Positions 9,704-27,594 of a stretch of 42,521 nt of DNA are shown one piece after another. The notes under the pieces were generated by a model. It searched no databases. It was given only the letters and a program-made list of their open reading frames with translations, and was not told the origin of the DNA. The DNA comes from Actinomycetes bacterium (GTDB taxonomy: Bacteria; Actinomycetota; Actinomycetes; Mycobacteriales; Jatrophihabitantaceae), in NCBI GenBank assembly GCA_009780925.1, contig WQZC01000001.1, positions 1-42,521 of the forward strand. Reading direction: 5' to 3'. Position 1 is the first letter of the stretch; every line of letters begins with the position of its first letter. A program made the translations under genes and the position numbers.

Positions 9704-10999
9704 CTAACCTACGTTACGGACCTTTATGTAGGTGATCGGTGCGTGCCCATAGGTGTTCATGTACCAGTTGTAGCCGGGATACTCGTGCTTCAGCTCAGGA
9801 TCGATGACGTATGTGGTGTTGCCTTTGCGGAACTCCGTCCAACCGTGCGGGCCGAAGCCGCCGCTCATCTCCGGCACCTTCCCAACCACAACTTTCACGT
9901 CGTAGCCATAGGACCGGGCCAGCACGGCGAACATGGACGCGTACTGATAGCAGTTACCGCCGCGGTTCTGATAGAAACTCAGCGCATATTTGTAGACGAA
10001 GTCGCCGCCGGGATCGGCTTTCCCGCTGATGCCGAGGTACGGGAAGGGCCACACATAGTTGAAGGACGCCATCATCGGATCGCGGGGATTCCCAAGTTTC
10101 TTGTGGATCGCCATCACGGCGTTGTACAGCGCCTGGCTGCCGCCCGACCAGTCGGGCAGATACATGAAGGTGAAGCTGCCGATGATCGGATTGGCCGACC
10201 CGGCCCCGATGTTGATGGCGCGAATCTGAATGGTGTGGGTTCCGGAACGCAAGGCGGCGGTGCCGGCCAGAGTCCAGGTGCGGGTGAAGTACGCGGGGTA
10301 CGCCGGCGCGGTGACCGTCTCCCGGACCTTGCCGTCAAGCAGGTACTGAACCTGAAGCGGCACACTCTGGTCGTTCGGGTCGAATACCCGGCCCTTCCAG
10401 GTCACGCCGCTGGTCCCCTTGGTGAACGTGGTCGACCCGACGGGGTTGTTCGCGTCCACCAGCGTGACCGTCTTGCAACCCAACGCGGTGGTGGGCGCGC
10501 TCGCGCCCGGGCCGACCGCGTTGACGCAGAACTTGTGCGCCCCCCACGCCAGGGCTGGCGAGGTCCACGCGAAGGGGGTGCTGGTCGCCGTTGCGGTGCT
10601 AGTCGGGCTGGCTGCCGGGTCCCGTGGGTCCGGCCGGGGCACCTCGGTCAGGTAGCCGTAGGTGTGGCCGTCGATGGTGAACAGCGGGTAGTAGCCCGGC
10701 AGCACCCACCCGGCGACGGTGATGGTGCGGTCCTGGCTGGTCGTCACGCTGTCCCAATGCCCGACCGCAGCGCTCGCCGCCGCAGCCCCGGCGGGCGCGG
10801 CGAAGGCGACCACAGCGGCGACAAGTCCGGTGGAGAGCAGCCCGGCGACAGCCGCGCTGGAAGGTGACCGACGCCGCAGCGTGGGACCAGCGAGTCGGCG
10901 CGCCACGCGGCCCGCTCCCGCACCCGACGAGCAGCGCAGCTTTCGCGCGCGCGAAAGGACACCGGATGCGACTATCGGGCTCGAAGATCTTCCAAACAT
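9704..10999 (-). CDS. Secreted transglutaminase-like (Cys-His-Asp) domain protein
   Basis: The C-terminal core GGNCYQYASMFAVLARSYGYDVKVVVG...GPHGWTEF...TYVIDPE fits the transglutaminase-like cysteine protease fold (C, H, D). It has an N-terminal hydrophobic signal, AAVAGLLSTGLVAAVVAFAAPAGAAAASA. An alternative GTG start at 10906 (MARRLAGPTLRRRS...) is possible. Confidence 0.75.
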   Translation of the reverse strand: MFGRSSSPIVASGVLSRARKLRCSSGAGAGRVARRLAGPTLRRRSPSSAAVAGLLSTGLVAAVVAFAAPAGAAAASAAVGHWDSVTTSQDRTITVAGWVLPGYYPLFTIDGHTYGYLTEVPRPDPRDPAASPTSTATATSTPFAWTSPALAWGAHKFCVNAVGPGASAPTTALGCKTVTLVDANNPVGSTTFTKGTSGVTWKGRVFDPNDQSVPLQVQYLLDGKVRETVTAPAYPAYFTRTWTLAGTAALRSGTHTIQIRAINIGAGSANPIIGSFTFMYLPDWSGGSQALYNAVMAIHKKLGNPRDPMMASFNYVWPFPYLGISGKADPGGDFVYKYALSFYQNRGGNCYQYASMFAVLARSYGYDVKVVVGKVPEMSGGFGPHGWTEFRKGNTTYVIDPELKHEYPGYNWYMNTYGHAPITYIKVRNVG

Positions 11000-11095
11000 C
11001 GGCTAATGCTCCCATCACGGCCGTATTGGACGCACCAACACTTTACAAGCACGGCGCCAGGCGCCCCGGTCGCACCGGACCGCCCGCCGCCGCGC

Positions 11096-12262: not shown

Positions 12263-14389
12263 TCAGGCGACGCCGTTGAGCTGGTCGACCACCTTGAGCA
12301 AGTCACCGCGGTCGTAGTAGTTGACCGCCACGAAGTTGGCGACGCGCCCGCGCCGGGCCTGGCACTTGGTGACATACGGCCACAGCGTGTCGTAGGAGTT
12401 GACGCGGATCGCGTTGCTGACCAGCGCGTGGAACCCGTTGACCCAGGTGTTCAGCAGCAGCAGTGGGTTGTCGGGCGCGCCGCGGTTCGGCTCGCAACTG
12501 AGCTGCGCCACGCTGCGCGCGGTGAACGGGGTGTCCCCGATCCAGTCGAAGCCCGACAGCAGCCACGGGTATCGCGCGCCGCCGCCATGACGCTCCATGA
12601 ACACCACCATCCGCTCGCCGGAATCGATCATCTGCCGCAGCGTCGGCCAGGGCTGGCCGGCGACCGGCTGGTAGGCGTACTTGACCAATCCGGCCTGCTC
12701 GAACACCTTCGCGGTGTCCGCCGGGGACACCTGGTCCTCGATGATGAAGGTGATGACCTCGCGTGGGTGCGCGGTCATCCACTGGCCCACCCGCGCCATC
12801 AACGGCTCCCACTCGACCGCGCCCAGCTCGCACAACCCATGGCACAGATACGGCGTCGGCGGGCCGACCGGCGTGGGCAGCAGCGCGTCGCGGAGCCGCA
12901 ACGCCGCCTGCACCGTGTCCGCGCCGTACTCCGCGCTGGCGGAGCGCAACGCGGCCTCGTAGTTCTGCGGCGCGGTCGCGACCACCCCGGGCGCGGTGGT
13001 GGCTTGGCCGTACCAACTGTCGATCAGGAACACCCGGATGCCGGCGTCCAGTTGGGCGATCACGCCGTCCGGCTGCTCAGGCAGGAACCAGCCCTCGTCG
13101 GCGGCGGTCATCGAATTGTGGGTGCCGGCGAACGCGACCTGGTCGTACCGCCGGTCGCACAACTGGGCGTGGCCCTCGCAGCCGGCGGAAACGGACGGCA
13201 CGCTCGACGCCGGGCCATCGCCGGTCGCGGCGATGGCCCGGCCGCCGCCGATCGCGTCCCCCGCCACCACGGCCACGATGACCGCGACCGCGACCACCGG
13301 CAGCACCCCCATGGCCAACCACCGCCCCAGTCGGCGGCGTCGGGGCGTCCCCGACGAACCGGGCGGCCGCAGCCGCGCCACCCCGGCGGCCATGGTCAGT
13401 TCGGCCACCGCTACGGTCGCCAGCGCCAAACCGACGAGCGCGGCCAGCAGCCCAAAGGTCAACTCCGGGCGCAACAGGATCCCCGCCGCGACGATGGCCA
13501 GCGCCGCCGCGTGCGCCACCAGCGCGAGCCGGCCGCTCGGACGGGCGGTGAGCAGCGCCACACCGCGCCGGGTCAGCGCCGCCAAGTCCAGGCGCGGCGC
13601 CATCCCAGCCGCGGCGACCGCGAGCACGCAGCCGGCGAGCGCCAGCGCGGCGGCGGCGCGCCACAGCGTGCCCTGGGTCATCCGCCATCCGGCGGCGATG
13701 ATCGCGCCGCGCAATGTGCCCTGATTGGCGCGGGAGACAACGATCGACGAGACGACGCCGACCACCCCGACCCCAACGCCGGCGAGCGCCACCGCGATGC
13801 CCGCGCGCGTCACTGCCCGCCAGCGGTCCCGGGCCAAGGCGACGGCGCCGAGGAGCGCGAAAGCGGCCAGCAGCGGCAGCAGCCAGGACAGCAGCGCGAC
13901 GACCCGGGTCAGGTGGATCGCGCGCGCCGCGAACCGCTGGCTGGAGATGTCGGCGAGGGTGACATCGATGCGATCCGGCAACCGGGTGGCCAACTGCGGG
14001 GCCACGGTCCGCAACACCCCGATGACGGCGGTTCCCGCGTCGGCCAGGCGCAACACCACCGCGCCCTTGTCCTGCCCGGTGAACGCGGCGTGCAGTCGGA
14101 TCGCGGCCGAGCGCACGATCGGACCAAACGCCGGGCTGGCGACCAGCGCGCTCGCGGTGGACTGGATCAGCGGACGGATAGCCACCAGGTCCGGCTGGGC
14201 GGCAATGAGCTGATCGGTGATCCTGGCGCCGAGCCGCTCAGCCACCGCCGGATCGGCGCGAATTGCGTCCACCTCACCCGCGAAACGGGGTCCGTCGAGC
14301 ACGTTGTGGTTGATCAGCCCGGCGAGCACGCCGAGCAGCAGCAGCATCGACCCGCCCACCTCGCAGATCCTCGCCGCGACATTTCGCAC
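12263..14389 (-). CDS. Polytopic membrane protein with a C-terminal PI-PLC X-domain-like (PLC-like phosphodiesterase) domain
   Basis: The N-terminal ~400 aa carry many hydrophobic helices. The C-terminal soluble part begins CEGHAQLCDRRYDQVAFAGTHNSMTA...IRVFLIDSWYG, which resembles the THNS(Y) block of PLC-like phosphodiesterases. Confidence 0.6.
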   Translation of the reverse strand: MRNVAARICEVGGSMLLLLGVLAGLINHNVLDGPRFAGEVDAIRADPAVAERLGARITDQLIAAQPDLVAIRPLIQSTASALVASPAFGPIVRSAAIRLHAAFTGQDKGAVVLRLADAGTAVIGVLRTVAPQLATRLPDRIDVTLADISSQRFAARAIHLTRVVALLSWLLPLLAAFALLGAVALARDRWRAVTRAGIAVALAGVGVGVVGVVSSIVVSRANQGTLRGAIIAAGWRMTQGTLWRAAAALALAGCVLAVAAAGMAPRLDLAALTRRGVALLTARPSGRLALVAHAAALAIVAAGILLRPELTFGLLAALVGLALATVAVAELTMAAGVARLRPPGSSGTPRRRRLGRWLAMGVLPVVAVAVIVAVVAGDAIGGGRAIAATGDGPASSVPSVSAGCEGHAQLCDRRYDQVAFAGTHNSMTAADEGWFLPEQPDGVIAQLDAGIRVFLIDSWYGQATTAPGVVATAPQNYEAALRSASAEYGADTVQAALRLRDALLPTPVGPPTPYLCHGLCELGAVEWEPLMARVGQWMTAHPREVITFIIEDQVSPADTAKVFEQAGLVKYAYQPVAGQPWPTLRQMIDSGERMVVFMERHGGGARYPWLLSGFDWIGDTPFTARSVAQLSCEPNRGAPDNPLLLLNTWVNGFHALVSNAIRVNSYDTLWPYVTKCQARRGRVANFVAVNYYDRGDLLKVVDQLNGVA

Positions 14390-14571
14390 GCCCTGTATTG
14401 TCCGCTCGCTCGCTTCCCAGAGCGACCGCCAGAACGCGGCGCGCCCCAGGCGCGTGGCGCCCCACCGCTATCAGCCGCGTCGGCGCGCGCACGGCGCCCG
14501 CGCGGCAGTATGATATTGGCCGAGCGTGGCCGCTTGGGCGCAAATCTCTGGCCACTGAAAAGAGGGATCTC

Positions 14572-15771
14572 ATGGCGCCGCACCGACGTCTTCTCAGCCG
14601 TTTGACCGTGGTCGCTGTCTCCGCCTCGGTGTTGGCCGGGCTGTCATTGGCCGTGGGCGCGACCGCCGCGAGCGCCGCCACCATCGCCGACACCTTCCCG
14701 GACTCCGGGCTCGCGCAATGCGTCGCCGACGCCCTCAATGGCGGTCCCAGTGGCGACCCCACCGATCCCTACGTCCAAAGCGATATCGACCTAATAGCCG
14801 ACTTGTCTTGCCAGAGCTACGGGATCAGCGCGCTGGACGGCATCGACAACTTCACGGGCCTCCTCTCGCTGAATCTATCCGGCAATCAGATCAGCGACAT
14901 TTCCGTGCTCGGCCCGCTGACCTCGCTGCAAATCCTGGTCTTGTCGGGCAACCAGATCGACGACGCCACTGCGGTGGCCGGTCTCACCGGGCTCACCAAA
15001 CTGGATCTGAGCAACAACCAGCTCACCTACCTTCCCGACCTGAGCGCGCTGACCGCGCTGACCCAACTGGACCTGAGCAACAACCAGCTCACCGACGTTT
15101 CCCCGCTGAGCGGGCTCACCGCGCTCACGGAGGCCAACCTGAGCAACAACCAGATCCTGGACATCTCACCGTTGAACGCGTTGTTCAACCCGCCCTCCGG
15201 CACGACAAACCTGACCAATCTCTCCATATTGGGCCAGTGGGGCCAGCAGCTGGCGCTTCCAGCGATCTGCGCTGACACCCCGTGGCCGGACCCGGTGGTG
15301 GGCCTTGACGGAAAGGCGGTGCTGCCGACCGACCTGACCATCAACCCCGCGGACGCGATCGTCGACACCAGCGCGGGCACCATCAGCTACCCGACGGCCG
15401 GTGCCGATTATCAGCTCGCCTGGCGCGTGGCGCTACCCACCAACACTCCGACCAGCGGTCACGTGGTGCCTGACGGACAGTATTTCGCGGGCACGGTGAC
15501 CCAACCGGTCAGCCCAGCGGATGTGTGCCCGGCCAACACGCAGACGACCGCCCCGGCGAGCCCATCCAAGACCCCGACAAAGCCCACCAAATCGGTCACG
15601 CCGGTCAAGTCCACCAGCACCCAAACGTTGGGCCACATCGAGATCGCGACCGGCCTCGGGGCGAACGCGGCCCAAGGGCCAAACGGCGCGCTGCTCGCCC
15701 TCGGTTCGGTGCTGATGACGCTTGGGCTGGGCGCCGCTGGGATGATGGTCCGCCGTCGCGTCCGCGCCTGA
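14572..15771 (+). CDS. Internalin-like leucine-rich-repeat surface protein with a C-terminal membrane or cell-wall anchor signal
   Basis: RBS aagaggga is followed by the ATG at 14572, then the signal peptide MAPHRRLLSRLTVVAVSASVLAGLSLAVGATAASA. It has at least six ~22-aa LRRs (LSLNLSGNQISDISVLGPLTSLQILVLSGNQIDD...LDLSNNQLTDVSPLSGLTALT). The C-terminus is IEIATG, a hydrophobic helix, then RRRVRA. Confidence 0.8.
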   Translation: MAPHRRLLSRLTVVAVSASVLAGLSLAVGATAASAATIADTFPDSGLAQCVADALNGGPSGDPTDPYVQSDIDLIADLSCQSYGISALDGIDNFTGLLSLNLSGNQISDISVLGPLTSLQILVLSGNQIDDATAVAGLTGLTKLDLSNNQLTYLPDLSALTALTQLDLSNNQLTDVSPLSGLTALTEANLSNNQILDISPLNALFNPPSGTTNLTNLSILGQWGQQLALPAICADTPWPDPVVGLDGKAVLPTDLTINPADAIVDTSAGTISYPTAGADYQLAWRVALPTNTPTSGHVVPDGQYFAGTVTQPVSPADVCPANTQTTAPASPSKTPTKPTKSVTPVKSTSTQTLGHIEIATGLGANAAQGPNGALLALGSVLMTLGLGAAGMMVRRRVRA

Positions 15772-17368: not shown

Positions 17369-20335
17369 GTGACCGGCCGCCACCACACCGCCAGCACCAC
17401 GGAGCGCGCGCCGCGCGCCACCGCGCGCCGGGTCACCGGGTTCCTCCGCCGGCGCACCGCGATCGCCGCCGCGCTGGCCGTGATCGCCTCCGGGATCCTG
17501 GTCCCGTCCATGATGAGCCGCGCCTCCGCCGCCACCAAGACGCTGGTCGTCAACTCGACCGCCTGGGGCGGGCCGGACGCCAACCCCGGCAACGGGGTGT
17601 GCGCCACCTCCACCGGCGTCTGCACGCTGCGCGCGGCGATCGAGGAGTCGAACGCGCTCAAAGGCGGGGCCGGCGACATCCTGATCACGGTCGACCCGTC
17701 GATCGCGGCCGGCACGAAAATGTCGGGCACGGTCAACTACCCCCCGAACTACATGATCGGGGCTGAGTTGAACGGCGCGGACACCAACGGCGCCTACTTC
17801 AACGTCACCGCGCCGGTGACCATCGACCTCGACCACCGGCTGCAGGTTGACGGCTCGGCCAACAGCAGCTACATGGCAGCCGCCTTCTATCTCAACGGCC
17901 CGGACATCCAAGTGCTTAACGCCGATCAGGTGTTCTCCTCGGGCACGTCCTTCATCGTCGGCCCGCTCGCGAACCGGGTGCTGATCGACGGCGACGCCGG
18001 TGGTGGTTTCGGCCAGGTCGCCACCCCGAACAGCAATCCGCAGCGTTTCGTGGCGTTCCGCGACGGGGCCTCGAACGTGACAGTTCGGAACTACCAAGTC
18101 ACCGGCTTCTCCCCCAACGTAGCTCTCGGCGGGATCTTCATCTTCAACTCGCAATCCCCGTACACCGCGCTGAACAACATCGTCATCGACCGGGTCCAAG
18201 TGCTCAACGCGCCGCTGACCAACACGACATGCACCACTTCCGACGGTTCAGGGTGCCGGGCCCGGCTCGTGGGGTTCTGGAACGGCCTGGGCGCCGGCTG
18301 GGGCGTTGACACCTTCACCATCAACGGGCTCACCTTCAAGAACATGTTGGTGCGCAACCAGACCAACCAAACCGGACTGCAATTCGCCGCCGCCGGGGAC
18401 ACCCAAGGCATCAGCTCCGCCAGCATCACCAACCTGGTCATCGAAGACAACGTCTTCGTGAACAATCAGGGCAGTGGCACCGCCACCGGCAACGCGTTCA
18501 TCACTCTGCCCTACCACCAGCACCTGAAGGGGAAGAACTCGATCTCCCGAAACGTGTTCACCCGGGCCGCCACCGGCAGCGCGTTCGCGATCTACTACTA
18601 CGGCAACAACCTGATCACCGCCAACTCAACGACCCCATCGGGCCTGACCATCGCGGACAACCACTTCAACGGCTACACCGGCGGCGCCACCATCCGCACC
18701 GAGCGCACCGGCCTGGTCACGGTGACCGGCAACACCTTCGGCCCGGCCACCGGTTCGCAAGCCGCGCCCGGCGTCACCGAGGAGTACACCGACACCGCCT
18801 CCGTGCTCTACAACACCTATCACGGCGGGGTCAACTACAACTCCAACCAGTCCATCCGAACCTGGGCGCCGTCTGGCGACGCCGCGATCGCGAACGGCCA
18901 GCTCCCGGCCGGCGCTCTGATCATGGCCGACCCGCGAGGTGGCGCCCTGCCAACCGCCACCGCCATCGTCGACGTGACCAAGATCACCGCGACCGACAAC
19001 ACCTCGCAGGCGCCGGGCCAGCCGGTGACCCTGCAGGCCTACTGGACCGCCAGCCGCGGCGCCGAGATCTACCTCGGCAAGGTGAGCGGCGTCACCGGCT
19101 CCGCCGCCACCGTGGCGGTACCGCTGCCGGTGGGCGCGGTGGCTCTGCCCGACGGCACCACCGCGACCGCGGTGGACGCGACCACCGGCGCGGCGTCTGG
19201 ATACCTCCGGTTCCAGACCCACGTCGAGGGCCTCGGCCAACTGGAATCGTCGCAGTACTCCCGCCTGGCGCCGCTGTCCGGCACCTACACGCCGTTCCCG
19301 ACGCTGACCATCGACCAGGCGGCGGGCATGGGTGACCCAACGACCGGCCGCGACCTGCACTTCACCCTCACCTCGTCGATGCCGCTGGACCCGGCCACCG
19401 TGACCACCGACGCGATAACCCTGGCCGCGACGCCGACCGAGCAGACCATCGACGCCGCCCGGATCAACCCGCGCGTGGTGTCGATCAGCGAGGTCGCCGG
19501 CAGCGGAGGCACCGCCTTCAACATCGTCGTCCGGGTCGACGACTCGGCGACGGTCGCCGCCACGGTGGCCGCCGAGACCGTGCAGACCCCTGACGGGCTG
19601 ACCAACGAGGACCCGGCGAGCTTCACCGACAACGAGATCACCTTCCGCAACCCGTTGCTGGTCGATCCGGCCAAGTTCACCCTGGTCACCGGCGAGCCAC
19701 ACGGCAAGGACTTCACCATCGGCCTGGTCGCGGGCGCCCCGGCCCCAACCGACGACCTGACGTTCGCCGCCACCGTGAGCCAGCCGCAGGGCACTCCACT
19801 GGTGAGCCTGTCCACCACCAGCCCGGTGGTGCCGGCTGGCCAAAGCGCCAGCGCGCCGGTCACAGTCACCGCCGCGGGCGGCGACGTGGACCCGAACACC
19901 GCGGTGACGATCACGCTGACCGTGTCCTCACCGGACACCAACTACGACGGCCTCGTGGTGCCCACGGTGCGCCCGCACCTGTTCGCCACCGACCCAACCA
20001 TCCACATCACCAAGCACGCCTGGGTCGAGGTCGCCGACACCTCCTCGCCGGCGGGGATCGAGACCACCGGAACCCCCGCGCCGAACGGTACCCCGTTGCT
20101 CGACGGGCAGCTGGTGTGCTTCGTCTACACGGTCACCAACACCTCGGCCGACGACTGGGCCACCCCGCTGACCAACATCGTGGTCACCGACTCCGACACC
20201 CGCCTCGGCGCCGCCGGCGTCATCGGGACCATCGGGTCCCTGGCCCCCGGCGCGTCCGTCAAGCTCGCTGACTGCACCTCGTTGGCCCCGATCGACACCA
20301 CCGTCACGCGGGCCGGAAGCGGCGGCCAGTCATGA
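17369..20335 (+). CDS. Large secreted right-handed beta-helix protein with a CSLREA-like N-terminal motif and C-terminal Ig-like/DUF11-like domains
   Basis: A strong RBS aaaggagggg precedes the GTG. The signal peptide is RRRTAIAAALAVIASGILVPSMMSRASA. GVCTLRAAIEESNA resembles the CSLREAI motif that heads many parallel beta-helix proteins. The body is a long run of Asn/Gly/Thr-rich coils. The C-terminus (ITKHAWVEV...CFVYTVTNTS) is Ig-like. The stop overlaps the next ATG (ATGA). Confidence 0.8.
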   Translation: MTGRHHTASTTERAPRATARRVTGFLRRRTAIAAALAVIASGILVPSMMSRASAATKTLVVNSTAWGGPDANPGNGVCATSTGVCTLRAAIEESNALKGGAGDILITVDPSIAAGTKMSGTVNYPPNYMIGAELNGADTNGAYFNVTAPVTIDLDHRLQVDGSANSSYMAAAFYLNGPDIQVLNADQVFSSGTSFIVGPLANRVLIDGDAGGGFGQVATPNSNPQRFVAFRDGASNVTVRNYQVTGFSPNVALGGIFIFNSQSPYTALNNIVIDRVQVLNAPLTNTTCTTSDGSGCRARLVGFWNGLGAGWGVDTFTINGLTFKNMLVRNQTNQTGLQFAAAGDTQGISSASITNLVIEDNVFVNNQGSGTATGNAFITLPYHQHLKGKNSISRNVFTRAATGSAFAIYYYGNNLITANSTTPSGLTIADNHFNGYTGGATIRTERTGLVTVTGNTFGPATGSQAAPGVTEEYTDTASVLYNTYHGGVNYNSNQSIRTWAPSGDAAIANGQLPAGALIMADPRGGALPTATAIVDVTKITATDNTSQAPGQPVTLQAYWTASRGAEIYLGKVSGVTGSAATVAVPLPVGAVALPDGTTATAVDATTGAASGYLRFQTHVEGLGQLESSQYSRLAPLSGTYTPFPTLTIDQAAGMGDPTTGRDLHFTLTSSMPLDPATVTTDAITLAATPTEQTIDAARINPRVVSISEVAGSGGTAFNIVVRVDDSATVAATVAAETVQTPDGLTNEDPASFTDNEITFRNPLLVDPAKFTLVTGEPHGKDFTIGLVAGAPAPTDDLTFAATVSQPQGTPLVSLSTTSPVVPAGQSASAPVTVTAAGGDVDPNTAVTITLTVSSPDTNYDGLVVPTVRPHLFATDPTIHITKHAWVEVADTSSPAGIETTGTPAPNGTPLLDGQLVCFVYTVTNTSADDWATPLTNIVVTDSDTRLGAAGVIGTIGSLAPGASVKLADCTSLAPIDTTVTRAGSGGQS

Positions 20336-21015
20336 GCGCGACCCGCAACCGTCCCAGCAAGCACCAGGCGCCGACCCCCCGGCGACGCCGCGCGCTCGCC
20401 GCGCTGGCGCTGCCACTGGCCGTGGGCGCGATCGCGCTGTGCATGATCGGTGGGGTGACCCACGCGCGGTGGGCCAGCAACGACACGTTCTCCGGCGGTA
20501 CCGTCACCGGCGGCGACCTGCGCGTCAGCACCGGCGCGATGACCTGGCGACAGACCACCCCCGGCGTGACCAACCCCGCGTCCGGCACCCTGGGCGACGC
20601 CCCATCCGGCTTCGTCGCGATGCCCGGCGACGTGGTGGAGATCAGCGTGCCGGTGACCACCGTGCTGCACGGCCAGAACCTCACCGCCGAGCTGACCGCC
20701 GACTACCTGGCCCCCGCCTCGACGGGAGCCGACATCGCGGTGACCTACCGCGTGGAGAACGAAGCGGGGCAACAGATCGCGCCGGCGACCGGGACCGCGC
20801 CCGTCACCGACCCGCTCACCATATCCGGTCTGGCCGGCGACCCCGCAGGGGCCGACACGCACTGGACCGTGGTGCTGCGCGTGGCAGTGGTCAGCGACTA
20901 CCAGTGGATCACCCCGGACCAGCCGGCCCAAACCACCGACTTCAACGCCGGCAAAGTTCGGGTGACACTCACCCAGACCCGCTCATCAGGCACCGATCCG
21001 GGGGGCGGTGCCTGA
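20332..21015 (+). CDS. TasA/camelysin-like exported protein with an alternate-type (SipW-cognate-like) signal peptide, copy 1
   Basis: The N-terminus has the n-region RRRRALAAL, a TM segment, then GGVTHARWASNDTFSGGTVTGGDLRV. Compare B. subtilis TasA GGGTWAAFND...FASGTLDL (from memory). An internal MPGDVVEISVP block is also present. The gene is ATGA-coupled to the beta-helix gene. Confidence 0.75.
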   Translation: MSATRNRPSKHQAPTPRRRRALAALALPLAVGAIALCMIGGVTHARWASNDTFSGGTVTGGDLRVSTGAMTWRQTTPGVTNPASGTLGDAPSGFVAMPGDVVEISVPVTTVLHGQNLTAELTADYLAPASTGADIAVTYRVENEAGQQIAPATGTAPVTDPLTISGLAGDPAGADTHWTVVLRVAVVSDYQWITPDQPAQTTDFNAGKVRVTLTQTRSSGTDPGGGA

Positions 21016-21929
21016 TGAACCGGACCGGAAAGCTCGTCATCGGCGCAGTCGTGGCAGCAGTGACGATTGGCGTCGCCACCAGCGCCCTCGCGCTGTGGGC
21101 GGCCAACAGCGACGCCACCGCTGACCCGATACCCGTCGGCGGCATCTCCTTCGCCGCCACCGCCGGCCAAGGCGGCGCCGTCCCGCAGTACTCGGCGAAC
21201 GGCGGCCCGGTGACGCTGACCCTGCCGGGCAGTGAGATCGCCAAGGTCCTCGACGGCACCGACCCCAGCCCAGCGCCCGTGATCTGGCGGTTCACCGCTG
21301 AGGGACAAGCCGAAGGGATCACCGGCCTGAGCATGGACGTCACCGCGGGCAGCCAGATCGCCCCCAACGGAGCGATCACCGACATCGGATCGGGGATCGC
21401 CGCCCGCGGGACCGTGCTGGCGTTCTCCACCCTTCGGGTGTACGCGGCGTCGATCAACGGCGACTGCGCCACGCTGCCCGAGGTGCCCGAAACCGATCCC
21501 GGCAAGAACATCTACCTCTACGACAGCACTGATCACGTCCTGCAGACGGCGGGCGGGTTCGCCGGCCAGCCGGTGCGCCAGCAGTGGTGCGTGGCCATCA
21601 CGTTCAACGCCGACCCGCCGGGCGCGTACGCCAACGAGGTCCAGGCGCACGGAATCGCCGCGAACGGCGATCGGGTCAGCGCGGTCGACTCGTGGCGGTC
21701 GGTGGTGGCGTTTCCGCCATCGCTGGACGCCTCGGGCATCTACCGCAACCACGCCGACGTGGTCGGCGTGGCCATGGACGGGACCGCCTCGCGCGCCAGC
21801 GACCAGTTCGAAGCGCGCGTCTACCCGGATCCGAACGCGGAGCCCGACGTCACCATCGTGCTCGATCCGAAAGTCACCAACCTGAACCCAACCGTGTCAG
21901 CAGGTGACCGTTTCACCCCGACACCCTGA
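21015..21929 (+). CDS. Exported protein with a related alternate-type signal peptide, divergent member (copy 2)
   Basis: MNRTGKLVIGAVVAAVTIGVATSALALWAANSDATADPIPVGG shares the ALW(A/S)AN(S/D) junction with its neighbours. It is coupled by a TGATG overlap at 21013..21017. The track ORF 20439..21929 is an over-extension. Confidence 0.65.
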   Translation: MNRTGKLVIGAVVAAVTIGVATSALALWAANSDATADPIPVGGISFAATAGQGGAVPQYSANGGPVTLTLPGSEIAKVLDGTDPSPAPVIWRFTAEGQAEGITGLSMDVTAGSQIAPNGAITDIGSGIAARGTVLAFSTLRVYAASINGDCATLPEVPETDPGKNIYLYDSTDHVLQTAGGFAGQPVRQQWCVAITFNADPPGAYANEVQAHGIAANGDRVSAVDSWRSVVAFPPSLDASGIYRNHADVVGVAMDGTASRASDQFEARVYPDPNAEPDVTIVLDPKVTNLNPTVSAGDRFTPTP

Positions 21930-22021
21930 ACCCCCTCGCGACGACTGCGAGGCCACGCCCCCACCAGGGCACAACCGAAAACCGCGCCCCCACCGGGGCC
22001 GACTCAAGAAGGAACACGACA

Positions 22022-22813
22022 ATGAGCACCAATGACACCGCGGTCGTCGTTGTGACCGAGGAAAAGAAACGTCGCCGCGGCCTTATCTGGATCGCCGGCG
22101 CGACCGCAGCGCTGATGCTGGGCGGCGGGACGTTCGCCCTCTGGTCGGCGAACGACTCCTTCAACGGCGGTTCCATCACCGCTGGCGACCTGAACATCAC
22201 CAAGGTTGAGAACACCACCTACTGGGACGTCTCGACGGACCGGAAAGACGCCGATCAGACCGTGCCGGGCACCAACGGGAAAACCGGCCACGCCATCGAC
22301 AGCATCGCCACCTGGCGGATCGTGCCCGGTGACAAGGTCGCCGCGGTCTTCTCCACCAGCGTCACCCTCGAGGGCGACAACATGGTCGGCAAACTGTCGG
22401 TCAAAGGCTTTGACGCCATGACCGACGGCAACGCGTCACTGACCTGGAGCTACCAGATCTTCCACGAGGCGGAGGCCGTGGCGGCCGAGACCGCGCTGCC
22501 GGCCGACGGCAACCTGCTCTACCTGTCCGCCCCGGGCACCGGTCAGGACAGCGGCCTAGAGGACGCCGACGGCACCACGGTCCGCGCGATGACCGACAAG
22601 ACGGAGAACCTCACCATCGTCATCTACGGCACCTTCGCCGCCACCGCCGGCAACGACGGCAAGACCGACAAGGACGCCAACGGCGTGTACAGCCACCAGA
22701 GCACGGACGCCACCGGCACCCGCCAAGACGCCACCAAGGCCGACATCCTCGCCAAGCTGCTGGTCCAGCTCGACCAGGTTCGCGACACCGGCGCGCAGTT
22801 CGCTGTCAACTAA
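22022..22813 (+). CDS. TasA/camelysin-like exported protein with an alternate-type signal peptide, copy 3 (candidate major subunit)
   Basis: RBS gaagga is upstream. KKRRRGLIWIAGATAALMLGGGTFALWSANDSFNGGSITAGDLNI closely parallels the TasA signal-mature junction. WRIVPGDKVAAVFSTSVTLEGDNMVGKL parallels copy 1. Confidence 0.8.
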   Translation: MSTNDTAVVVVTEEKKRRRGLIWIAGATAALMLGGGTFALWSANDSFNGGSITAGDLNITKVENTTYWDVSTDRKDADQTVPGTNGKTGHAIDSIATWRIVPGDKVAAVFSTSVTLEGDNMVGKLSVKGFDAMTDGNASLTWSYQIFHEAEAVAAETALPADGNLLYLSAPGTGQDSGLEDADGTTVRAMTDKTENLTIVIYGTFAATAGNDGKTDKDANGVYSHQSTDATGTRQDATKADILAKLLVQLDQVRDTGAQFAVN

Positions 22814-22825
22814 CCCCAAAACCAA

Positions 22826-22845
22826 GGGCCCCAAGCACGGGGCCC
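22826..22845 (+). terminator. Short GC hairpin directly after the copy-3 stop
   Basis: gggcccc aagcac ggggccc: a 7-bp perfect stem with a 6-nt loop, 13 nt after the TAA at 22811..22813. Confidence 0.4.
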
Positions 22846-22851
22846 GAAATA

Positions 22852-23080
22852 CCCCAGCGGCCCCGAAACGGCCACCCCATCTGCCCAAGTAAGGGCCGCT
22901 GGCCACAACAAAGGAACCCCAACCACGGGGAACCGGAAAACCCCAGCGGCCCCGAAACGGCCACCCCATCTGCCCAAGTAAGGGCCGCTGGCCACAACAA
23001 AGGAACCCCAACCACGGGGGTCCGGAAAACCCCAGCGGCCCCGAAACGGCCACCCCATCTGCCCAAGTAAGGGCCGCTGG
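22852..23080 (+). repeat. Tandem repeat, 89-bp unit x 2.6 copies, each with a 10-bp-stem hairpin. It is preceded by a degenerate partial unit at ~22821..22851.
   Basis: Units start at 22852, 22941 and 23030. Copies 1 and 2 differ at 2 of 89 positions (ggggaaccgg vs gggggtccgg). Copy 3 is identical for its first 51 nt. Each unit contains ccagcggccc...31 nt...gggccgctgg (perfect inverted repeat) and a second small cccc-aaccac-gggg hairpin. Confidence 0.95.
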
Positions 23081-23083
23081 CAC

Positions 23084-23120
23084 CGGCACGACACCCAACC
23101 GCGCCCCTGGGGTCGTGCCG
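23084..23120 (+). other. Hairpin closing the repeat region, upstream of the signal peptidase gene
   Basis: cggcacgac ...19 nt... gtcgtgccg: a 9-bp perfect stem. Confidence 0.4.
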
Positions 23121-23234
23121 AGGTGGCCGGTGGCGGATGAACTGGTGCTCTCCGCCACCGGCCCATTACCCCCAAAGACTTCGCACCAGCGCACAAACCA
23201 TGCGCCGCCCGACCCATGCCAGAGAGGAGTCACC

Positions 23235-24047
23235 GTGAAGCACCGCGCCGCCGCCAAGCCCCGCGACCCCAAGCCGCCGCGTCACGCGGCCGCCCTACCC
23301 ACGGTGACCCCCCGGAGCGTCGCGACCGACCGGGCCGACACCGACTGGGCCGACATCGCAGCACTGCCCGCCAGCGCCCGCCGCCGGTTCGACTCCCCGT
23401 GGCGCGTCGCCGGGGCCGCCCTGATGATCGCGCTGACCATCTCGTTGGTGGCGGTCGCCTCGGCGATCTTCGTTGTGCCACGCGTCGTCGGTGGCACCAG
23501 CCTGACCGTGCTGACCGGATCCATGCAGCCGACCCTCAAGCCTGGCGACGTCGTCGTCGTGCGCGGCGTCGCGCCCAAGGACGTGTGCCAGGACGTGAAG
23601 GTCGGGCAGATCATCACCTTCCTTCCCAAGCCAGACGACCCCACCCTGATCACCCACCGGGTCGTGTCCAAGACAATCGGCGCTTTCGACGACGGCACCT
23701 CGTGCCGGCTCACCACCCGCGGCGACGCAAACTCCGCCGACGACGAGCCGATCTCCCCGATCCAGGTGCGCGGCGCGTTCATGTATGGCGTGCCAAAGCT
23801 CGGCTGGGCCCGCCAGTGGATCAGTGACCATCGGCCAGTGGTCGCGGCCATCGGCGCCGGGCTCTTCGTCGCCTACCTGTTGTGGATGCGCGCCCGCCCC
23901 AAGACGACGCGAGTCGTCAAATACCAGCGGCAACCCGTCAGCGGCCGGCCGGAGGACGCCGCCGACGACGCCGACAGCACCGCGACCGCGGCCGGCGCGC
24001 CCGGCATCGGCACTCCCATCCGGGCCTCAATCGCGGCCCGCAGCTGA
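23235..24047 (+). CDS. Signal peptidase I, SipW / archaeal-ER type (S26B-like)
   Basis: VLTGSMQPTLKPGDVVVVRG...GQIITFLP...LITHRVV...TTRGDANSADDEP parallels B. subtilis SipW SGSMEP...GDVITF...THRIV...KGDNN. It has an N-terminal TM and a C-terminal TM (VVAAIGAGLFVAYLLW). I prefer the GTG at 23235 with RBS gagaggag, but the GTG at 23115 is possible. Confidence 0.85.
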   Translation: MKHRAAAKPRDPKPPRHAAALPTVTPRSVATDRADTDWADIAALPASARRRFDSPWRVAGAALMIALTISLVAVASAIFVVPRVVGGTSLTVLTGSMQPTLKPGDVVVVRGVAPKDVCQDVKVGQIITFLPKPDDPTLITHRVVSKTIGAFDDGTSCRLTTRGDANSADDEPISPIQVRGAFMYGVPKLGWARQWISDHRPVVAAIGAGLFVAYLLWMRARPKTTRVVKYQRQPVSGRPEDAADDADSTATAAGAPGIGTPIRASIAARS

Positions 24048-24937
24048 TGCGCGCCCGTTCGCCGCGCCGCGACGGACCGGACTGGCGGGCGCGGACAAAC
24101 CGCGGGCACGGCCTTTCCCAGCGTGGGCGCGCCATCTCCTGGCTGATGGCCACGGTGCTGCTTTGCTGCGTGGCTCTGATCGCGACCGGTGGCGGAGTGG
24201 GCGCGATCACCGGCGCTGGCGGTCAATCCCCCGGCCGAAACACCAACCGAAACACCGACAAAGTCATAACCGCCCAATGGGATGGCCCGACCACCCACTT
24301 GAACTGGCTGGGTGACCGTTACACCACCGCCGAGGCGACCTTTGTGGGTGATCGGGTGGCCATCCCCGGCGACCGCGTGCAACGAACCTTGAACGTGTGC
24401 AATGACGGGCCGTCTGGAGCGGTGATGGTGGTGTCGCTGCTAGTCGCGGAAAACCCGGCCGCGTTCGAGCAGGACCCGGAACTGGCATCGGATGTCGATC
24501 TGTTCTGGAGCGTCGGCGACGCCGTCGGCTCGGACCGTTTCGAAACGCTGCTGGCCGCCGCCGACGGAACCGAGGTGGCGCACACGCACGCGCCCCGCGG
24601 GGTGATCATCCCAGTCACCGTCGGATTCACCATGGACCGCGCCGTCACCACCGGTCAGGACCGCGCCGCCGCGATGCCCGAGCTGAGCTTCAAGGTCGAA
24701 GTGCGCATGCATGGCGACGCCAGCCTGCCGAGCGGCATGGACTCACCGCACGACTCCGACGCTCCGTCCGCCGCGCGACCGGACACCAATGGTTGGCGGA
24801 TCCCCGGGCTCTCCGCAACCGGGGCGGCGGTCCTTGGCGCCGCCGCGGCCGCCGTCGGCCTGCTGGGCCTCGGCGCGCTGGCATTGTTGCTGGTAACGCG
24901 CCGCCGCCGGCGCGCGCGTCACGCGTCATCCGAATAG
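24047..24937 (+). CDS. Exported TasA-like-core protein with a C-terminal LPXTG-like (LSATG) cell-wall sorting signal
   Basis: It is coupled to the peptidase gene by a TGATG overlap. It has an N-terminal TM (WLMATVLLCCVALIATGG). IPGDRVQRTLNVCNDGPSGAVMVVSL resembles the TasA LKPGDKLTKDFQFENNGSLAIK block. The C-terminus is IPGLSATG, a 24-aa hydrophobic stretch, then RRRRRAR. Confidence 0.7.
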   Translation: MRARSPRRDGPDWRARTNRGHGLSQRGRAISWLMATVLLCCVALIATGGGVGAITGAGGQSPGRNTNRNTDKVITAQWDGPTTHLNWLGDRYTTAEATFVGDRVAIPGDRVQRTLNVCNDGPSGAVMVVSLLVAENPAAFEQDPELASDVDLFWSVGDAVGSDRFETLLAAADGTEVAHTHAPRGVIIPVTVGFTMDRAVTTGQDRAAAMPELSFKVEVRMHGDASLPSGMDSPHDSDAPSAARPDTNGWRIPGLSATGAAVLGAAAAAVGLLGLGALALLLVTRRRRRARHASSE

Positions 24938-25050
24938 TGCCCGAGATGACGTATTCACGCCCGCAGTCCGGTCTGGTGCCGGCCGCTTTGACCCATGAAA
25001 GCCTATTAATTCACCTATTCCGACTCTTGCGTGGCGCGTACGGTAGCGTT

Positions 25051-27594
25051 ATGGACGAAGAGATGGGCGGCATCGTCGAGGAAGTGACCGGGTATCTGGG
25101 CGACTCGGTCAGCGTCCACCTAGTCGGGTTGCGGCAATCAGGGCGCAGCCGGGTCGCCCGCCTGGTGGCCGACCGGCTCCGCGAACGCGGCATGGCGGTC
25201 GTGGTGGTCAGCGGAGTGGCCGCGTTGCGCGATCACCCGCTAGCCGTGCTCGCCTTGGCCGGGGTCAACATCCCCTCGGGCGCGGCGGCGTCATCCATCT
25301 CGGGCGCGGTTTCGGCGCTGTCCAAGCTGCTCACCCCGAACCGGTCGGTGCTGGTCATCGACGACGCCGACGATCTTGACTCGGTCAGTTCCGGAGCGGT
25401 CGCCGCCGCCCACGCCCGCCAGCCGTTCCCGGTGCTATCGGTGACCCGGATGGCCGGTCGCGGCCAGCCGACCAGCCGCGCGCTGACCGCGGGGTTCCAA
25501 CCCGGGGTGCGCGTCACCCTCGACCCATTGACCTTCGACCAGTTGCACCGCGTGGTCCACCGAATGCTCCCCGGACCGGTCGATTCGGCGACCGTCGCCC
25601 GCATCGCAACGCTCTCCGGCGGCCTGCCGGGACTGGTGCGCGCCATCGTGGACACCGGGCGACGGGCCGAGACCATCGTCGAGGAGCACACCGTCTGGCG
25701 GGCCAGGGGCGACCTGTGGAACGGCCGGCTCGCCCAAGCGGTGGAACCGCTGCTGGTGGATCTGACCGATGACGAGTTGGACGCGCTGACCCGCCTGGCG
25801 CTCACCGGCACCGTGACCGCGCCCGAAGCGCAGCACGTCGTCGCCGACCAGCTGTTCGCCCGCCTGGACCAGCTCGGGCTGCTCCAAGTCGCGCAGACCC
25901 CCACCGGCCCGCTGGTGGGAGTCTTCCCGCCACTGGTCGCCGAATACCTGCGCCGCACCGGGGCGGCGATGTCCCGACTGGACGCCATGGGCGGCGTCGC
26001 GGCAGAGGCCAGCGGGTCATGGGGCGCGCTCACCCCGAGGCTCACCCTCACCAGTTCGCGCGCGGCGATCCTGAACATGCGGATCGTCGAGCACTGGCGG
26101 GTCGAAGTGGCCAATGCGCGCGCGAGTTGGCGCGCGGCGCCCAGCGCCGCCACGGCGGTGCCGCTGCTCAGCGCGCTCAACGCCGCGTCGGCCGAGGCGA
26201 GCGAGTTCGCCGCCGTGCTGGACGGCACCGTGCTGGACGATAATGACCCGCGCGCGAGCGTCCGCCTGGTCATCTGGCGCGCCGCGCTACAGGCGTTGGT
26301 CGCCGACGACATTGACGGCGCCTGCGAGCTGTTGGCCAAGCAACAGGTCCGATCGCCGGCGTTCGCGAGCCAACTGCGCGCCACCCAGGTTGGGTTGCGC
26401 CTGCTCGTCGGACCGATGCCGGACCTCGAGCTGCTGGCCCCCGCCGGTCCGGAGGAGGATCCGCTCGGCGCCGAGGCGCTGGCGACCATGCGAGTCGCCG
26501 TTCTGAACGCGCAAGGGCGGACCATCGACGCGCTGGCGGCGCTGCCCAGCTACGCCCCAACGTATCCCTACTACGTCGAGAACAACCGGATCAGCGTCGG
26601 ACTGGCGCGGGTGCTGCACGGTGATTTCGACGACGGGGTGGAATGGGCGCTGCGCGCGATGGCTGACGCCGAAGCCAAACTCAGTCTCGGGGAGATCCAC
26701 GCGCACGCCTATGTGGCCGCGCTCGGCCTGACCTTCGCCGGGCGCCTCGACGATCTGGACGCGTTGCTCGGGCCAGTGCTGACCCTGCGCGGCACCCGGT
26801 TGCTGTCCGAGCACTATCAAATCGGTCTGCTCGGCCTGGCGGCGCTGGCCGCGAGCTGGCGCGGCCGGCTGGACCAGGGCTGGTCGCTGTCGGTGCAGGC
26901 GGAGACCACCGGGCGCCGGGCCGGACCGTTCCCGGGGATGCTGCACGGGGTCACCCCAACGGTCTCCGATCCCGACCGCGACTGGGAGCAGATCGGCGCC
27001 CGGCTGTGGCGCGCCGTCGACGAGCGTCTCGCCAAGGGCTACGTCACCGCCGGCGTCGCGGTCGCGCTCACCGCGGTGGAGATCGCGCCGGACAGCGAGC
27101 GCGCCGCCGCGGTGGTCGAGTGCGCCCGCCGCGCGCAGAGCCCGTTCCTCGCCGCGTTGGGCGAGTACATCGCGGCGACGGCGGCCGGCGACCCGGACGC
27201 GCTCAAGGAATGCTTCGCCGACCTGTGGAGCCGCGGCGCCCGGCTGCACGCGATCAAAGCCGCGGTGACCTGCGCGCTGGTGCTGCGCGCGAGCGGCGAC
27301 ATCCCCGCCTCGGTGCGGCAAGCCGAACAGGCCTGGGGCCGGTTGGCCGAGCTGGACCACGGCTGCCACGGGCTGTTCTTCCGCTTGGGCGATGCTGTCG
27401 GGCTCAGCACCCGCGAACGCGAGATCGCGGTGATGCTCGGCGACGGCATGACCGTGCCGGCGATCGCCTCGGTGCTCAGCCTGTCCGCGCGAACGGTGGA
27501 GAACTACCTGTTCAGCGGATGCCGGAAACTGGGCGTGGAGGGACGCGACGACCTGGTGCGCGCGGTGGCCACCTGGGCCGCGCTGGGCGCCTGA
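25051..27594 (+). CDS. Large LuxR-family (LAL/MalT-like) transcriptional regulator
   Basis: The C-terminal HTH is LSTREREIAVMLGDGMTVPAIASVLSLSARTVENYLFSGCRKLGV. The N-terminal P-loop-like motif VHLVGLRQSGRS is degenerate (K to R). The middle region is long and helical. I chose the ATG at 25051 because the upstream in-frame stretch (24946..25050) is AT-rich and uses tta/att/cta codons. A TANNNT hexamer (tacggt, 25039..25044) sits 6 nt upstream, which would fit a leaderless transcript. Confidence 0.8.
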   Translation: MDEEMGGIVEEVTGYLGDSVSVHLVGLRQSGRSRVARLVADRLRERGMAVVVVSGVAALRDHPLAVLALAGVNIPSGAAASSISGAVSALSKLLTPNRSVLVIDDADDLDSVSSGAVAAAHARQPFPVLSVTRMAGRGQPTSRALTAGFQPGVRVTLDPLTFDQLHRVVHRMLPGPVDSATVARIATLSGGLPGLVRAIVDTGRRAETIVEEHTVWRARGDLWNGRLAQAVEPLLVDLTDDELDALTRLALTGTVTAPEAQHVVADQLFARLDQLGLLQVAQTPTGPLVGVFPPLVAEYLRRTGAAMSRLDAMGGVAAEASGSWGALTPRLTLTSSRAAILNMRIVEHWRVEVANARASWRAAPSAATAVPLLSALNAASAEASEFAAVLDGTVLDDNDPRASVRLVIWRAALQALVADDIDGACELLAKQQVRSPAFASQLRATQVGLRLLVGPMPDLELLAPAGPEEDPLGAEALATMRVAVLNAQGRTIDALAALPSYAPTYPYYVENNRISVGLARVLHGDFDDGVEWALRAMADAEAKLSLGEIHAHAYVAALGLTFAGRLDDLDALLGPVLTLRGTRLLSEHYQIGLLGLAALAASWRGRLDQGWSLSVQAETTGRRAGPFPGMLHGVTPTVSDPDRDWEQIGARLWRAVDERLAKGYVTAGVAVALTAVEIAPDSERAAAVVECARRAQSPFLAALGEYIAATAAGDPDALKECFADLWSRGARLHAIKAAVTCALVLRASGDIPASVRQAEQAWGRLAELDHGCHGLFFRLGDAVGLSTREREIAVMLGDGMTVPAIASVLSLSARTVENYLFSGCRKLGVEGRDDLVRAVATWAALGA

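Follow-up and report, generated by a model that had tools for sequence, protein, structure and literature searches.

Can an actinobacterium build a surface fibre comparable to the TasA fibres of Bacillus subtilis, and if so, with which proteins? The question is raised by a cluster of seven genes at 17369-27594 of WQZC01000001.1, an actinobacterial contig that we analysed over its whole 42,521 nucleotides (nt) (the window). In this cluster a signal peptidase of the SipW/archaeal type lies among small exported proteins and a beta-helix protein of 988 amino acids (aa), and a first-pass annotation, made from the sequence alone, had proposed that it encodes an extracellular fibre or matrix system. 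On balance, though with no great confidence, we read the cluster as a self-contained operon for cell-surface protein assembly, most likely of a thin donor-strand-type fibre that is SipW-processed and anchored through a sortase substrate. Such a fibre would be related to TasA, BsaA and Tafi in its logic, and probably only distantly in its ancestry. A donor-strand fibre is proposed because the combination of a dedicated SipW/archaeal-type peptidase, several paralogous substrates whose mature N-termini are strongly conserved, and an anchor marks chaperone-free donor-strand filaments in every studied case, namely TasA (PMC9674648, PMC10151520), BsaA (PMC11580942), archaeal bundling pili (PMC9245690), Tafi (PMC11821415, PMC12337348) and AbpX (bioRxiv 10.64898/2026.01.04.697558). 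The genes concerned (G1 to G7), and a repeat between two of them, are as follows.

17369..20335, + strand: G1, 988-aa secreted protein with a predicted beta-helix and an immunoglobulin (Ig)-like stalk; ribosome-binding site AAGGAGG before the GTG at 17369; ATGA-coupled to G2.
20332..21015, + strand: G2, 227-aa exported protein with the SipW-type junction GGVTHA|RWASNDTFSGG; G4 paralogue.
21015..21929, + strand: G3, 304-aa exported protein with the junction TSALA|LWAANSDA; invariant ALW and a conserved Cys pair.
22022..22813, + strand: G4, 263-aa exported protein with the junction GGGTFA|LWSANDSFNGGSITAGDLNI; TIGR04089 and TIGR04088; its own ribosome-binding site, with stem-loops after the gene.
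22829..23081, + strand: 89-bp tandem repeat, 2.9 copies, in the gap between G4 and G5 (TRF score 453, 95% matches).
23235..24047, + strand: G5, 270-aa SipW/archaeal (ER)-type signal peptidase I; TIGR02228 and PF10502.
24047..24937, + strand: G6, 296-aa candidate cell-wall anchor or terminator, with LSATG (24809-24823), a transmembrane segment and RRRRR.
24946..27594, + strand: G7, LuxR-family regulator, probably of the LAL/MalT-like type, ~882 aa, with a C-terminal GerE helix-turn-helix.

Frame plots of G+C content at third codon positions (GC3) and lists of open reading frames (ORFs) show that these seven co-directional genes fill 17369-27594, between a CorA transporter gene on one side and a phosphofructokinase gene on the other, in a source contig of 42.5 kb with a G+C content of ~70%. 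The genes are closely packed. G1 and G2 share an ATGA, the coupling of beta-helix gene to first TasA-like gene that the first-pass annotation had pointed out, and TGATG overlaps join G2 to G3 and G5 to G6. G4 is set apart: on its 5' side lie a gap of 92 nt and a GAAGGA site of its own, on its 3' side a gap of 420 nt. By the same gene calls, the sequence features listed in the first-pass annotation are all present at its coordinates and they stand, with the amendments that the CSLREA_Nterm match of G1 falls below its cut-off, that the TasA-like core of G6 is weakly supported, and that the starts of G5 and G7 differ from those of the longest ORFs. For G5 the start is probably the GTG at 23235, not 23115, as an AGAGGAG ribosome-binding site precedes it and it gives the better fit to orthologues; for G7 a start at 24946 is more likely than one at 24793. 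A scan for promoters and terminators gave nothing above shuffled expectation, and no Rfam family matched anywhere in the window.

Is this set of genes found together elsewhere? A scan with a G1 profile, using one genome per species, gave 17 loci with an extended G1-family match, 11 of them near the full query, and one more locus was added by direct look-up; all ORFs of these 18 loci were classified by phmmer and then by family hidden Markov models. The order G1-G2-G3-G4-G5-G6 is colinear in 11 of the 18 (six in Microbacterium, three in Cellulomonas, one in Leucobacter and one in a Xylanimonas-like genome), while one Promicromonosporaceae locus has five of the six genes and one Propionibacteriaceae locus has G1-G2-G3. 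One of the fetched loci is interrupted by a contig end, and other G1-like genes lie in differing contexts. The genes flanking the unit are wholly different from genome to genome, so that the six genes themselves are the unit, and since this order of the six recurs in 11 of the 18 loci, across several genera, we judge the arrangement to be far beyond chance. More widely, the relatives of G4 (129 at E<=1e-3) and those of G1 (96) are found in the same taxa and frequently on the same contigs. The co-conservation of beta-helix gene, small exported proteins and peptidase that the first-pass annotation had offered for checking is thus present, profiles and synteny together bear out a dedicated module around a SipW/archaeal-type peptidase and SipW-cognate signal peptides, and the beta-helix gene is a constant, translationally coupled member of it. 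In four loci, L001 (9908-12880 and 19677-22622), L002, L010 and L011, G1 is duplicated, either in tandem ahead of G2 or as a second G1-G2 pair some kb downstream. A further arrangement was seen in Cellulomonas sp. IC4_254 (L012:2624-9410), where a weakly SipW-like ORF lies directly 5' of an 801-aa G1-like gene and a LuxR-type regulator, with G2-G4 and G6 lacking from this locus.

The peptidase itself is readily placed. G5 scores 70.8 bits against TIGR02228 (sigpep_I_arch; curated cut-off 51.85) and 26.6 bits against Pfam Peptidase_S26 (PF10502; cut-off 22.9), and it has one N-terminal and one C-terminal transmembrane segment. The SipW/archaeal type (MEROPS S26B-like) assigned to it in the first-pass annotation is therefore upheld. 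The catalytic Ser (in GSMQP, 23517-23531) and His (in ITHRV, 23649-23663), whose loss was named there as a ground for abandoning the idea, are intact, as is the Asp (in RGDAN, 23718-23732), and all three motifs are invariant across 12 orthologues. In this type the His stands where bacterial enzymes have a Lys, and the Asp is that of the GDxN box. Against the SipW equivalog model NF046067 the score is 47.4 bits, below the cut-off of 190, and by these profiles G5 is the same type of enzyme as Bacillus SipW in a different orthologous group. The G5 orthologues (L001-L018) have a cytoplasmic C-terminal tail of repeated, heptad-like LRERELxLRERELxL units; this tail is absent in the window copy (23886-24047).

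What would such a peptidase cut? The first-pass annotation had noted three proteins whose N-termini mimic the junction between signal peptide and mature protein in TasA. These junctions are present and conserved within their families: TFALW is invariant in 45 relatives of G4, ALW is invariant in 14 orthologues of G3, and (T/A)xA(L/R)W occurs in most orthologues of G2, which was found at 13 loci. The common form, xxA|(L/R)W, is of the SipW-cognate type. The TasA sequence was confirmed against PDB 8AUR, where the chain starts at A28, the mature N-terminus. Because the junctions align to GGGTWA|AFND of TasA, cleavage is predicted after the junction Ala, 1-3 residues upstream of the earlier placing, and would give mature ends LWSAND for G4, RWASND for G2 and LWAANS for G3.

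The suggested search against the NCBI models for such proteins had a mixed outcome. G4 lies above both cut-offs (TIGR04088, 25.9 bits, cut-off 19; TIGR04089, 64.5 bits, cut-off 60), G2 lies narrowly below both (16.6 bits, and 53.2 bits over the full profile), and G3 and G6 match neither model. The 129 relatives of G4 carry the NCBI names 'alternate-type signal peptide domain-containing protein' or 'SipW-dependent-type signal peptide-containing protein'. Profile comparison (hhalign) of G2 with the G4 family gives a probability of 99.7% over 181 columns, from which we take the two to be full-length paralogues, of the sort found in multi-pilin loci. The N-terminal half of G3 is G4-like (76%, 109 columns; against G2, 85%, 47 columns), and its ALW junction aligns with the junctions of both; G3 has no match in Pfam, NCBIfam or PDB sequences, and a Pfam scan of its family gave no informative family.

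In the AlphaFold monomer of G4 (predicted local distance difference test, pLDDT, 79; predicted template modelling score, pTM, 0.75), residues 56-253 form a beta-rich core that is modelled with confidence. Confidence is low over residues 1-50, which take in the signal peptide and the first ~10 mature residues; pLDDT is ~41 at 41-50. The family has 43 columns that are invariant or nearly so, and 12 of them fall in residues 34-57, the junction and the next ~20 mature residues. Strong conservation of an N-terminus that the monomer model does not pack with confidence is what one would expect if it were a donor strand. Also invariant in the family are an Asp-rich loop, DVSxDRxDA, and individual His, Asp and Asn residues.

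A fourth protein had been described as having a TasA-like core and a sortase-type sorting signal, and of the two the signal is the part that holds. In G6 a transmembrane segment or signal at the N-terminus is followed by a Gly/Ala/Pro linker and then by a beta-sandwich core that contains VPGDRVxRTLxVxNxGPS; the C-terminus has LSATG, a stretch of 25 hydrophobic residues and finally RRRRR. Thirteen orthologues conserve L[AP]x[TS]G, and in the wider family (196 cluster representatives in an exhaustive search) T-G is nearly invariant in 47 members. Pfam Gram_pos_anchor matches the orthologues weakly (two of 13, E 0.04), and a Pfam scan of the family gave no informative family. For the core, the support is weaker: the broad G6 family aligns to TasA with an hhalign probability of 72% (E 3.4e-5) over 78 columns, which begin in the signal peptide, pass WDGPxxxLDW (opposite FAAGTLDL in TasA) and reach VPGDRVxRTLxVxNxGPS (opposite LKPGDxxxRxFxLxNxGSLA), and neither the G6 nor the G3 family has a match to Pfam Peptidase_M73.

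G1 is the largest of the six proteins. Its AlphaFold model (pLDDT 86, pTM 0.70) has a signal peptide, a capping helix, a beta-helix at ~100-500 and about five Ig-like beta-sandwich domains at ~525-975; residues 100-500 form a run of short regular strands with pLDDT ~90, read as a right-handed beta-helix. The first-pass annotation had called it CSLREA-like, and the cap, CTLRAAIEE, is of that kind; its score against CSLREA_Nterm (TIGR04214) is 16.5 bits, below the cut-off of 25. The motif CTLRAA[IL]xE pulls out many CSLREA-type N-termini (tblastn; L019-L080). Pfam Beta_helix matches weakly in four of 31 relatives and Pectate_lyase weakly in a few, and the NCBI name of the relatives is 'right-handed parallel beta-helix repeat-containing protein'. 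Foldseek matches are dominated by the Ig-like half and are to arrays of Ig domains (complement C5, MG domains of alpha-2-macroglobulin, integrin, PrgB). Full-length relatives were found in Actinomycetes only, and the family C-terminus has a conserved Cys, then LxPxDTT, then 3-12 residues (20282-20302 in the window).

How might these proteins work together? The components by which loci of TasA-superfamily filaments are recognised (peptidase, paralogues, tip and anchor) have their counterparts here in G5, in G2, G3 and G4, in G1 as a possible tip, and in G6. In the scheme that we favour, G2, G3 and G4 would be exported and cut by the dedicated Ser/His/Asp peptidase G5 after the x-x-Ala of (T/A)xA|(L/R)W. 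The cut would free the conserved N-terminal segment, flexible in the monomer, to enter the beta-sandwich of a neighbouring subunit as a strand. G4 would be the major subunit, since a separate ribosome-binding site precedes its gene and repeated stem-loops come after it, and G2, the full-length G4 paralogue, and G3, divergent and with a Cys pair, would be minor, adaptor or initiator subunits. G6, with its beta-sandwich and LAxTG signal, would terminate the fibre. The housekeeping class E sortase of actinobacteria is LAxTG-specific, and such an enzyme, encoded elsewhere, would link G6 to peptidoglycan. G1, secreted by an ordinary signal peptide, would be an effector shown by the fibre or acting with it, either an adhesin or a polysaccharide-active beta-helix head on a stalk of Ig domains, and G7 would turn the operon on. 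Of this scheme, the gene content and its conserved order, the intact catalytic residues of the peptidase, the signal-peptide family, the G2/G4 paralogy and the sorting-signal motif are observed; that G5 makes the cut, that the subunits polymerise and in which order, the anchoring and the part played by G1 are inferred. A bolder version of this scheme, which we consider rather doubtful as a whole, is a hybrid pilus of Micrococcales that would unite two Gram-positive principles hitherto separate: a chaperone-free donor-strand polymer of SipW-processed G2-G4, capped and covalently wall-anchored by the sortase substrate G6, with G1 displayed without a pilin domain, perhaps via LxPxDTT. In most genomes, cutting of G6 by the sortase would then leave in the membrane a C-peptide with a cytoplasmic CxxC...CxxC zinc ribbon, which could report assembly to the adjacent LAL regulator.

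A number of results weigh against a fibre of this kind, and the first of them concern TasA itself. The first-pass annotation had taken G2 and G4 (20332..21015 and 22022..22813) to be TasA-like and had made their similarity to TasA/camelysin a test of its idea. G4 scores 14.6 bits against Pfam Peptidase_M73 (PF12389), where the gathering threshold is 22.5, and then over residues 20-70 only; this is the sole recurrent weak Pfam match in its family, in which 13 of the 45 sequences reach E<1, the best of them 5.3e-4. As hhalign of G4 against a single TasA sequence gave just a 14-column PGD match, a TasA family profile was built from 29 Bacillaceae sequences. To this profile the G4 family aligns with a probability of 58% (E 9.8e-5) over 47 N-terminal columns, which comprise the signal peptide and the first strand, and G2 and G3 align with 19% and 0.7%; a greedy alignment of the G4 and TasA profiles is colinear at the PGD strand and the last strand, without confidence. 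A Foldseek search of PDB with the G4 model returned nothing at E<1e-3. The TasA fibre (8aur_A) ranks fifth, with E 0.033, a template modelling (TM) score of 0.30-0.33 and a root mean square deviation of 11 A, and the remaining matches are generic beta-sandwiches, including strand-exchange pilins such as CfaB. Searched against PDB sequences, the G4 profile found no match, and those of G1, G3 and G6 found nothing or noise (GFP, dystroglycan transmembrane segments). The profile and structure comparison with TasA is thus borderline: the N-terminal alignment of 47 columns stands, and no significant profile or fold match extends to the mature domain. With the Pfam score below threshold, the hhalign probability at 58% and Foldseek below significance, membership of the mature domains of G2-G4 in the TasA/camelysin family is unproven. 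A distant relationship is plausible, and the similarity to TasA that these profiles detect appears real but narrow, covering the signal peptide and the first strand.

The remaining counter-evidence lies in the other members of the unit. The L011 unit has no peptidase gene. About ten of the 13 G6 orthologues continue beyond LAxTG, transmembrane segment and RRRR into a cytoplasmic tail of ~40 aa with two CxxC pairs, zinc-ribbon-like (e.g. L003:15984-16967 and L018:14287-15270); the window copy (24899-24937) ends directly past RRRRRARHASSE. Such a CxxC...CxxC tail is atypical for a sortase substrate and could be a signalling C-peptide. No sortase gene was found in the unit, in the scanned ORFs of the window or in the flanks of L001, L081 and L082; whole genomes were not searched. 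As for G1, membrane span and sorting signal are both absent from the C-termini of its family, and hhalign finds no domain in common with G2, G3, G4, G6 or TasA, on which ground a pilin-like domain in G1 was rejected. G1 was likewise rejected as a SipW substrate: its signal peptide is ordinary (predicted cleavage ASA|AT, about residue 54), and the family signal peptides are of the ordinary AxA type, without the ALW junction. That G1 is co-processed with the small proteins, as the first-pass annotation had thought possible, is therefore unlikely, there being no similarity to G2-G6 either, and with an ordinary signal peptide and no pilin-like domain it may be either a tip adhesin or an enzyme.

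These results leave room for other readings of the same genes. The chief competitor, unlikely in our judgement though far from negligible, is a surface complex that does not form filaments, in which the G5-processed beta-sandwich proteins G2-G4 and the wall-anchored G6 make up a scaffold or receptor of defined stoichiometry, which keeps G1 on the cell surface and does not polymerise. Conserved synteny fits such a complex and a fibre equally, and the mature domains have no significant fold or profile match to polymerising proteins. Moreover, no gene of the unit is larger or better conserved than G1, which also stands first and in some loci (L001, L002, L010, L011) is present twice; this suggests that it is the functional payload. 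However, a dedicated SipW/archaeal-type peptidase with paralogues that share a conserved mature N-terminus has been tied to strand-exchange polymers in all studied cases (PMC9674648, PMC11580942, PMC12337348, bioRxiv 10.64898/2026.01.04.697558), and the separate ribosome-binding site of G4 and the stem-loops after it suggest one subunit in excess.

A fibre might also be released into the matrix as in Bacillus subtilis, with G2-G4 unanchored, G6 an independent wall protein and G1 merely a co-regulated polysaccharide-active enzyme. Sortase plays no part in holding TasA fibres (PMC9674648), the signal peptide of G1 is ordinary and nothing in its sequence ties it to G2-G6, and the weak Beta_helix and Pectate_lyase matches in a few G1 relatives would suit an enzyme. 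We nevertheless hold this to be improbable, in that G6 always closes the unit, has its translation coupled to that of the peptidase, and has the PGD...N.G core motif and the first-strand alignment in common with TasA, while G1 is ATGA-coupled to G2 and present in every complete locus. Very improbable indeed is that G2-G4 share no more than an unusual signal peptide and are otherwise unrelated secreted proteins, for example metal-binding or lytic factors, with no structural role. The detectable similarity to TasA is limited to signal peptide and first strand, as this would predict, and the invariant DVSxDRxDA loop and His, Asp and Asn residues of G4 could bind metal; but G2, G3 and G4 are interrelated beyond the signal peptide, they have no protease or hydrolase motifs and match no enzyme family, and the presence of a conserved anchor protein and of a large, adhesin-like partner speaks for a surface structure.

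If a wall-anchored donor-strand fibre is nonetheless the best reading, which known system does it most resemble? The tapA-sipW-tasA operon of B. subtilis likewise has a dedicated SipW-type Ser/His peptidase within the operon and more than one substrate (TasA and TapA there; G2, G3 and G4 here), and TasA shares the GGGT-x-A|aromatic junction followed by a first strand of the form G-x-L-x-L. It differs in that the mature domains here stay below the Pfam M73 threshold and have no significant Foldseek match, and that G5 is not the SipW equivalog. TasA loci, moreover, lack an LPXTG/LAxTG anchor subunit, a beta-helix partner of 100 kDa and a LAL regulator, and are under the control of SinR, which is encoded nearby. 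The host here is also a high-GC actinobacterium.

The closest parallel in parts is archaeal. Tafi, the Tat-fimbriae of haloarchaea (TafA-G), comprises the tip TafC, the adaptor TafE, the major subunit TafA, the terminator and anchor TafF with a C-terminal membrane span, the peptidase TafD and the regulator TafB (PMC11821415, PMC12337348), a near one-to-one parts list with the present cluster: large two-part tip, adaptor, major pilin, anchor with pilin-like domain and C-terminal span, archaeal-type peptidase and regulator. The n-regions of the subunit signals are arginine-rich in both. Unlike the cluster described here, Tafi has an anchor whose membrane span comes without a sortase signal, its tip has a pilin-like N-domain, which G1 has not, and it has a DUF5305 accessory gene, which is absent here.

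Among bacterial systems, sipW-bsaA-bsaB-bsaC of Clostridium perfringens also combines SipW with two remote paralogues of TasA and a large adhesin-like secreted protein (BsaC, with a vWA domain, where the cluster has G1), and operons of the BsaA/TasA family carry several paralogues, often together with LPxTG proteins and signal peptidases (PMC11580942). The BsaA subunits are locked by an Asn-Glu-Lys isopeptide triad, and secretion of BsaC needs type IV pilus proteins (PMC11580942). A lock of the BsaA type was considered for the present subunits and set aside as unlikely, since no Lys is conserved in the G4 or G2 families. AbpX-like loci, whose anchors are of the LPXTG or SLH kind, have TasA-superfamily subunits beside an LPXTG anchor and regulators, and LPXTG anchors are predicted to strand-complement AbpX subunits (bioRxiv 10.64898/2026.01.04.697558). 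By analogy with AbpX, the Asp-rich loop of G4 could bind calcium. The peptidase associated with AbpX has ten transmembrane helices, whereas G5 has two; AbpX loci occur in Bacillota and Chloroflexota, and no beta-helix partner has been described for them.

Two further comparisons concern single proteins and sortase pili. G4 is a member of both TIGR04088 and TIGR04089 (the RER_14450 family) and its relatives are so named in RefSeq, yet these are models of single proteins without an assigned function, and the six-gene unit, with G3, G6 and G1, lies outside them. The clostridial proteins of the BsaA type we take to belong to TIGR04090 instead. SpaA-type sortase pili resemble the cluster in having a multi-subunit operon with a base subunit that bears a sorting signal and a large adhesin-like component. 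There, however, every pilin has a sorting signal and a pilin motif and the operon includes a pilus-specific sortase, whereas here the sorting signal is found in G6 only and no sortase is adjacent.

How much of this is new? In open-access papers and bioRxiv we found no published functional description of the actinobacterial module, no study of it or of TIGR04088, TIGR04089 or RER_14450, and no characterised TasA-superfamily filament from Actinobacteria; according to one preprint, the BLAST cluster around TasA takes in Actinomycetota. The architecture as a whole cannot be called undescribed, as the first-pass annotation had supposed, for the general logic of such loci has been published for Tafi (PMC11821415, PMC12337348), BsaA (PMC11580942) and AbpX (bioRxiv 10.64898/2026.01.04.697558). 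Particular to the present case are the fixed six-gene unit of Micrococcales, the constant, coupled beta-helix/Ig-stalk protein without a pilin-like domain, and the LAxTG anchor with a CxxC...CxxC tail in most orthologues.

Two elements outside the six genes may bear on expression. G7, identified in the first-pass annotation as a LAL/LuxR regulator following the cluster, has its GerE helix-turn-helix confirmed (PF00196, 40.7 bits, cut-off 23.5), and its AAA_16 match is weak and below the cut-off (19.3 bits against 32.6). Its P-loop (25126-25149) reads GLRQSGRS, not GxxxxGK[ST], and since an Arg takes the place of the Walker A Lys, the ATPase module may be degenerate. Eight loci have a homologue of G7 adjoining the unit, with the side and the orientation varying. 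The tandem repeat lies in the gap between G4 and G5, which at 420 nt is unusually long in the window (60-170 nt in related loci). Each 89-bp unit has a perfect 10-bp stem, CCAGCGGCCC/GGGCCGCTGG, with a 29-nt loop, and there is an additional GC hairpin at 22826-22845. Three exact 49-nt copies occur, with 0 expected by chance, and the RNA fold has a z-score of -4.2. No Rfam family fits the region, and JGI metagenomes, searched with an exact 25-nt query from the stem-loop, gave 0 matches. The repeat may be a transcript attenuator or stabiliser behind the gene of the major subunit.

Elsewhere in the window, a second giant surface-type protein (>1280 aa) lies at 38682-42521 (+ strand) and runs off the window end; it has six DUF11 repeats and matches to DUF7507, DUF7619 and DUF3344, and is unrelated to G1 by phmmer. 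On the - strand at 12263-14467, an ORF of 734 aa, strongly coding by its GC3 of 0.92 and unmatched in Pfam, sits between an adenosine kinase gene and a gene for a leucine-rich-repeat protein (14314-15771, + strand). At 6745-11002 (- strand) the gene of an AlgX-like SGNH domain protein adjoins that of an MBOAT acyltransferase, with a transglutaminase-core protein beside both; the adjacency of the AlgX-like and MBOAT genes suggests a pair for O-acylation of a polysaccharide or wall polymer.

What, then, does the locus tell us about these bacteria? Because the Tafi, BsaA and AbpX systems have already been published with the same locus logic, the gain is incremental, not conceptual. Proteins with an 'alternate-type signal peptide' are annotated in hundreds of actinobacterial genomes without an assigned function, and they are now placed in a fixed six-gene unit. 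The taxa that carry it are soil, plant-associated and termite-gut polysaccharide degraders (Microbacterium, Cellulomonas, Promicromonosporaceae). With its peptidase, its anchor in the wall and a beta-helix protein as large partner, the unit provides a concrete, testable model for a new actinobacterial surface appendage. Should a sortase-anchored terminator indeed exist, it would reveal the means by which a donor-strand fibre is held on the thick wall of a Gram-positive cell, and would also join two principles of pilus assembly.

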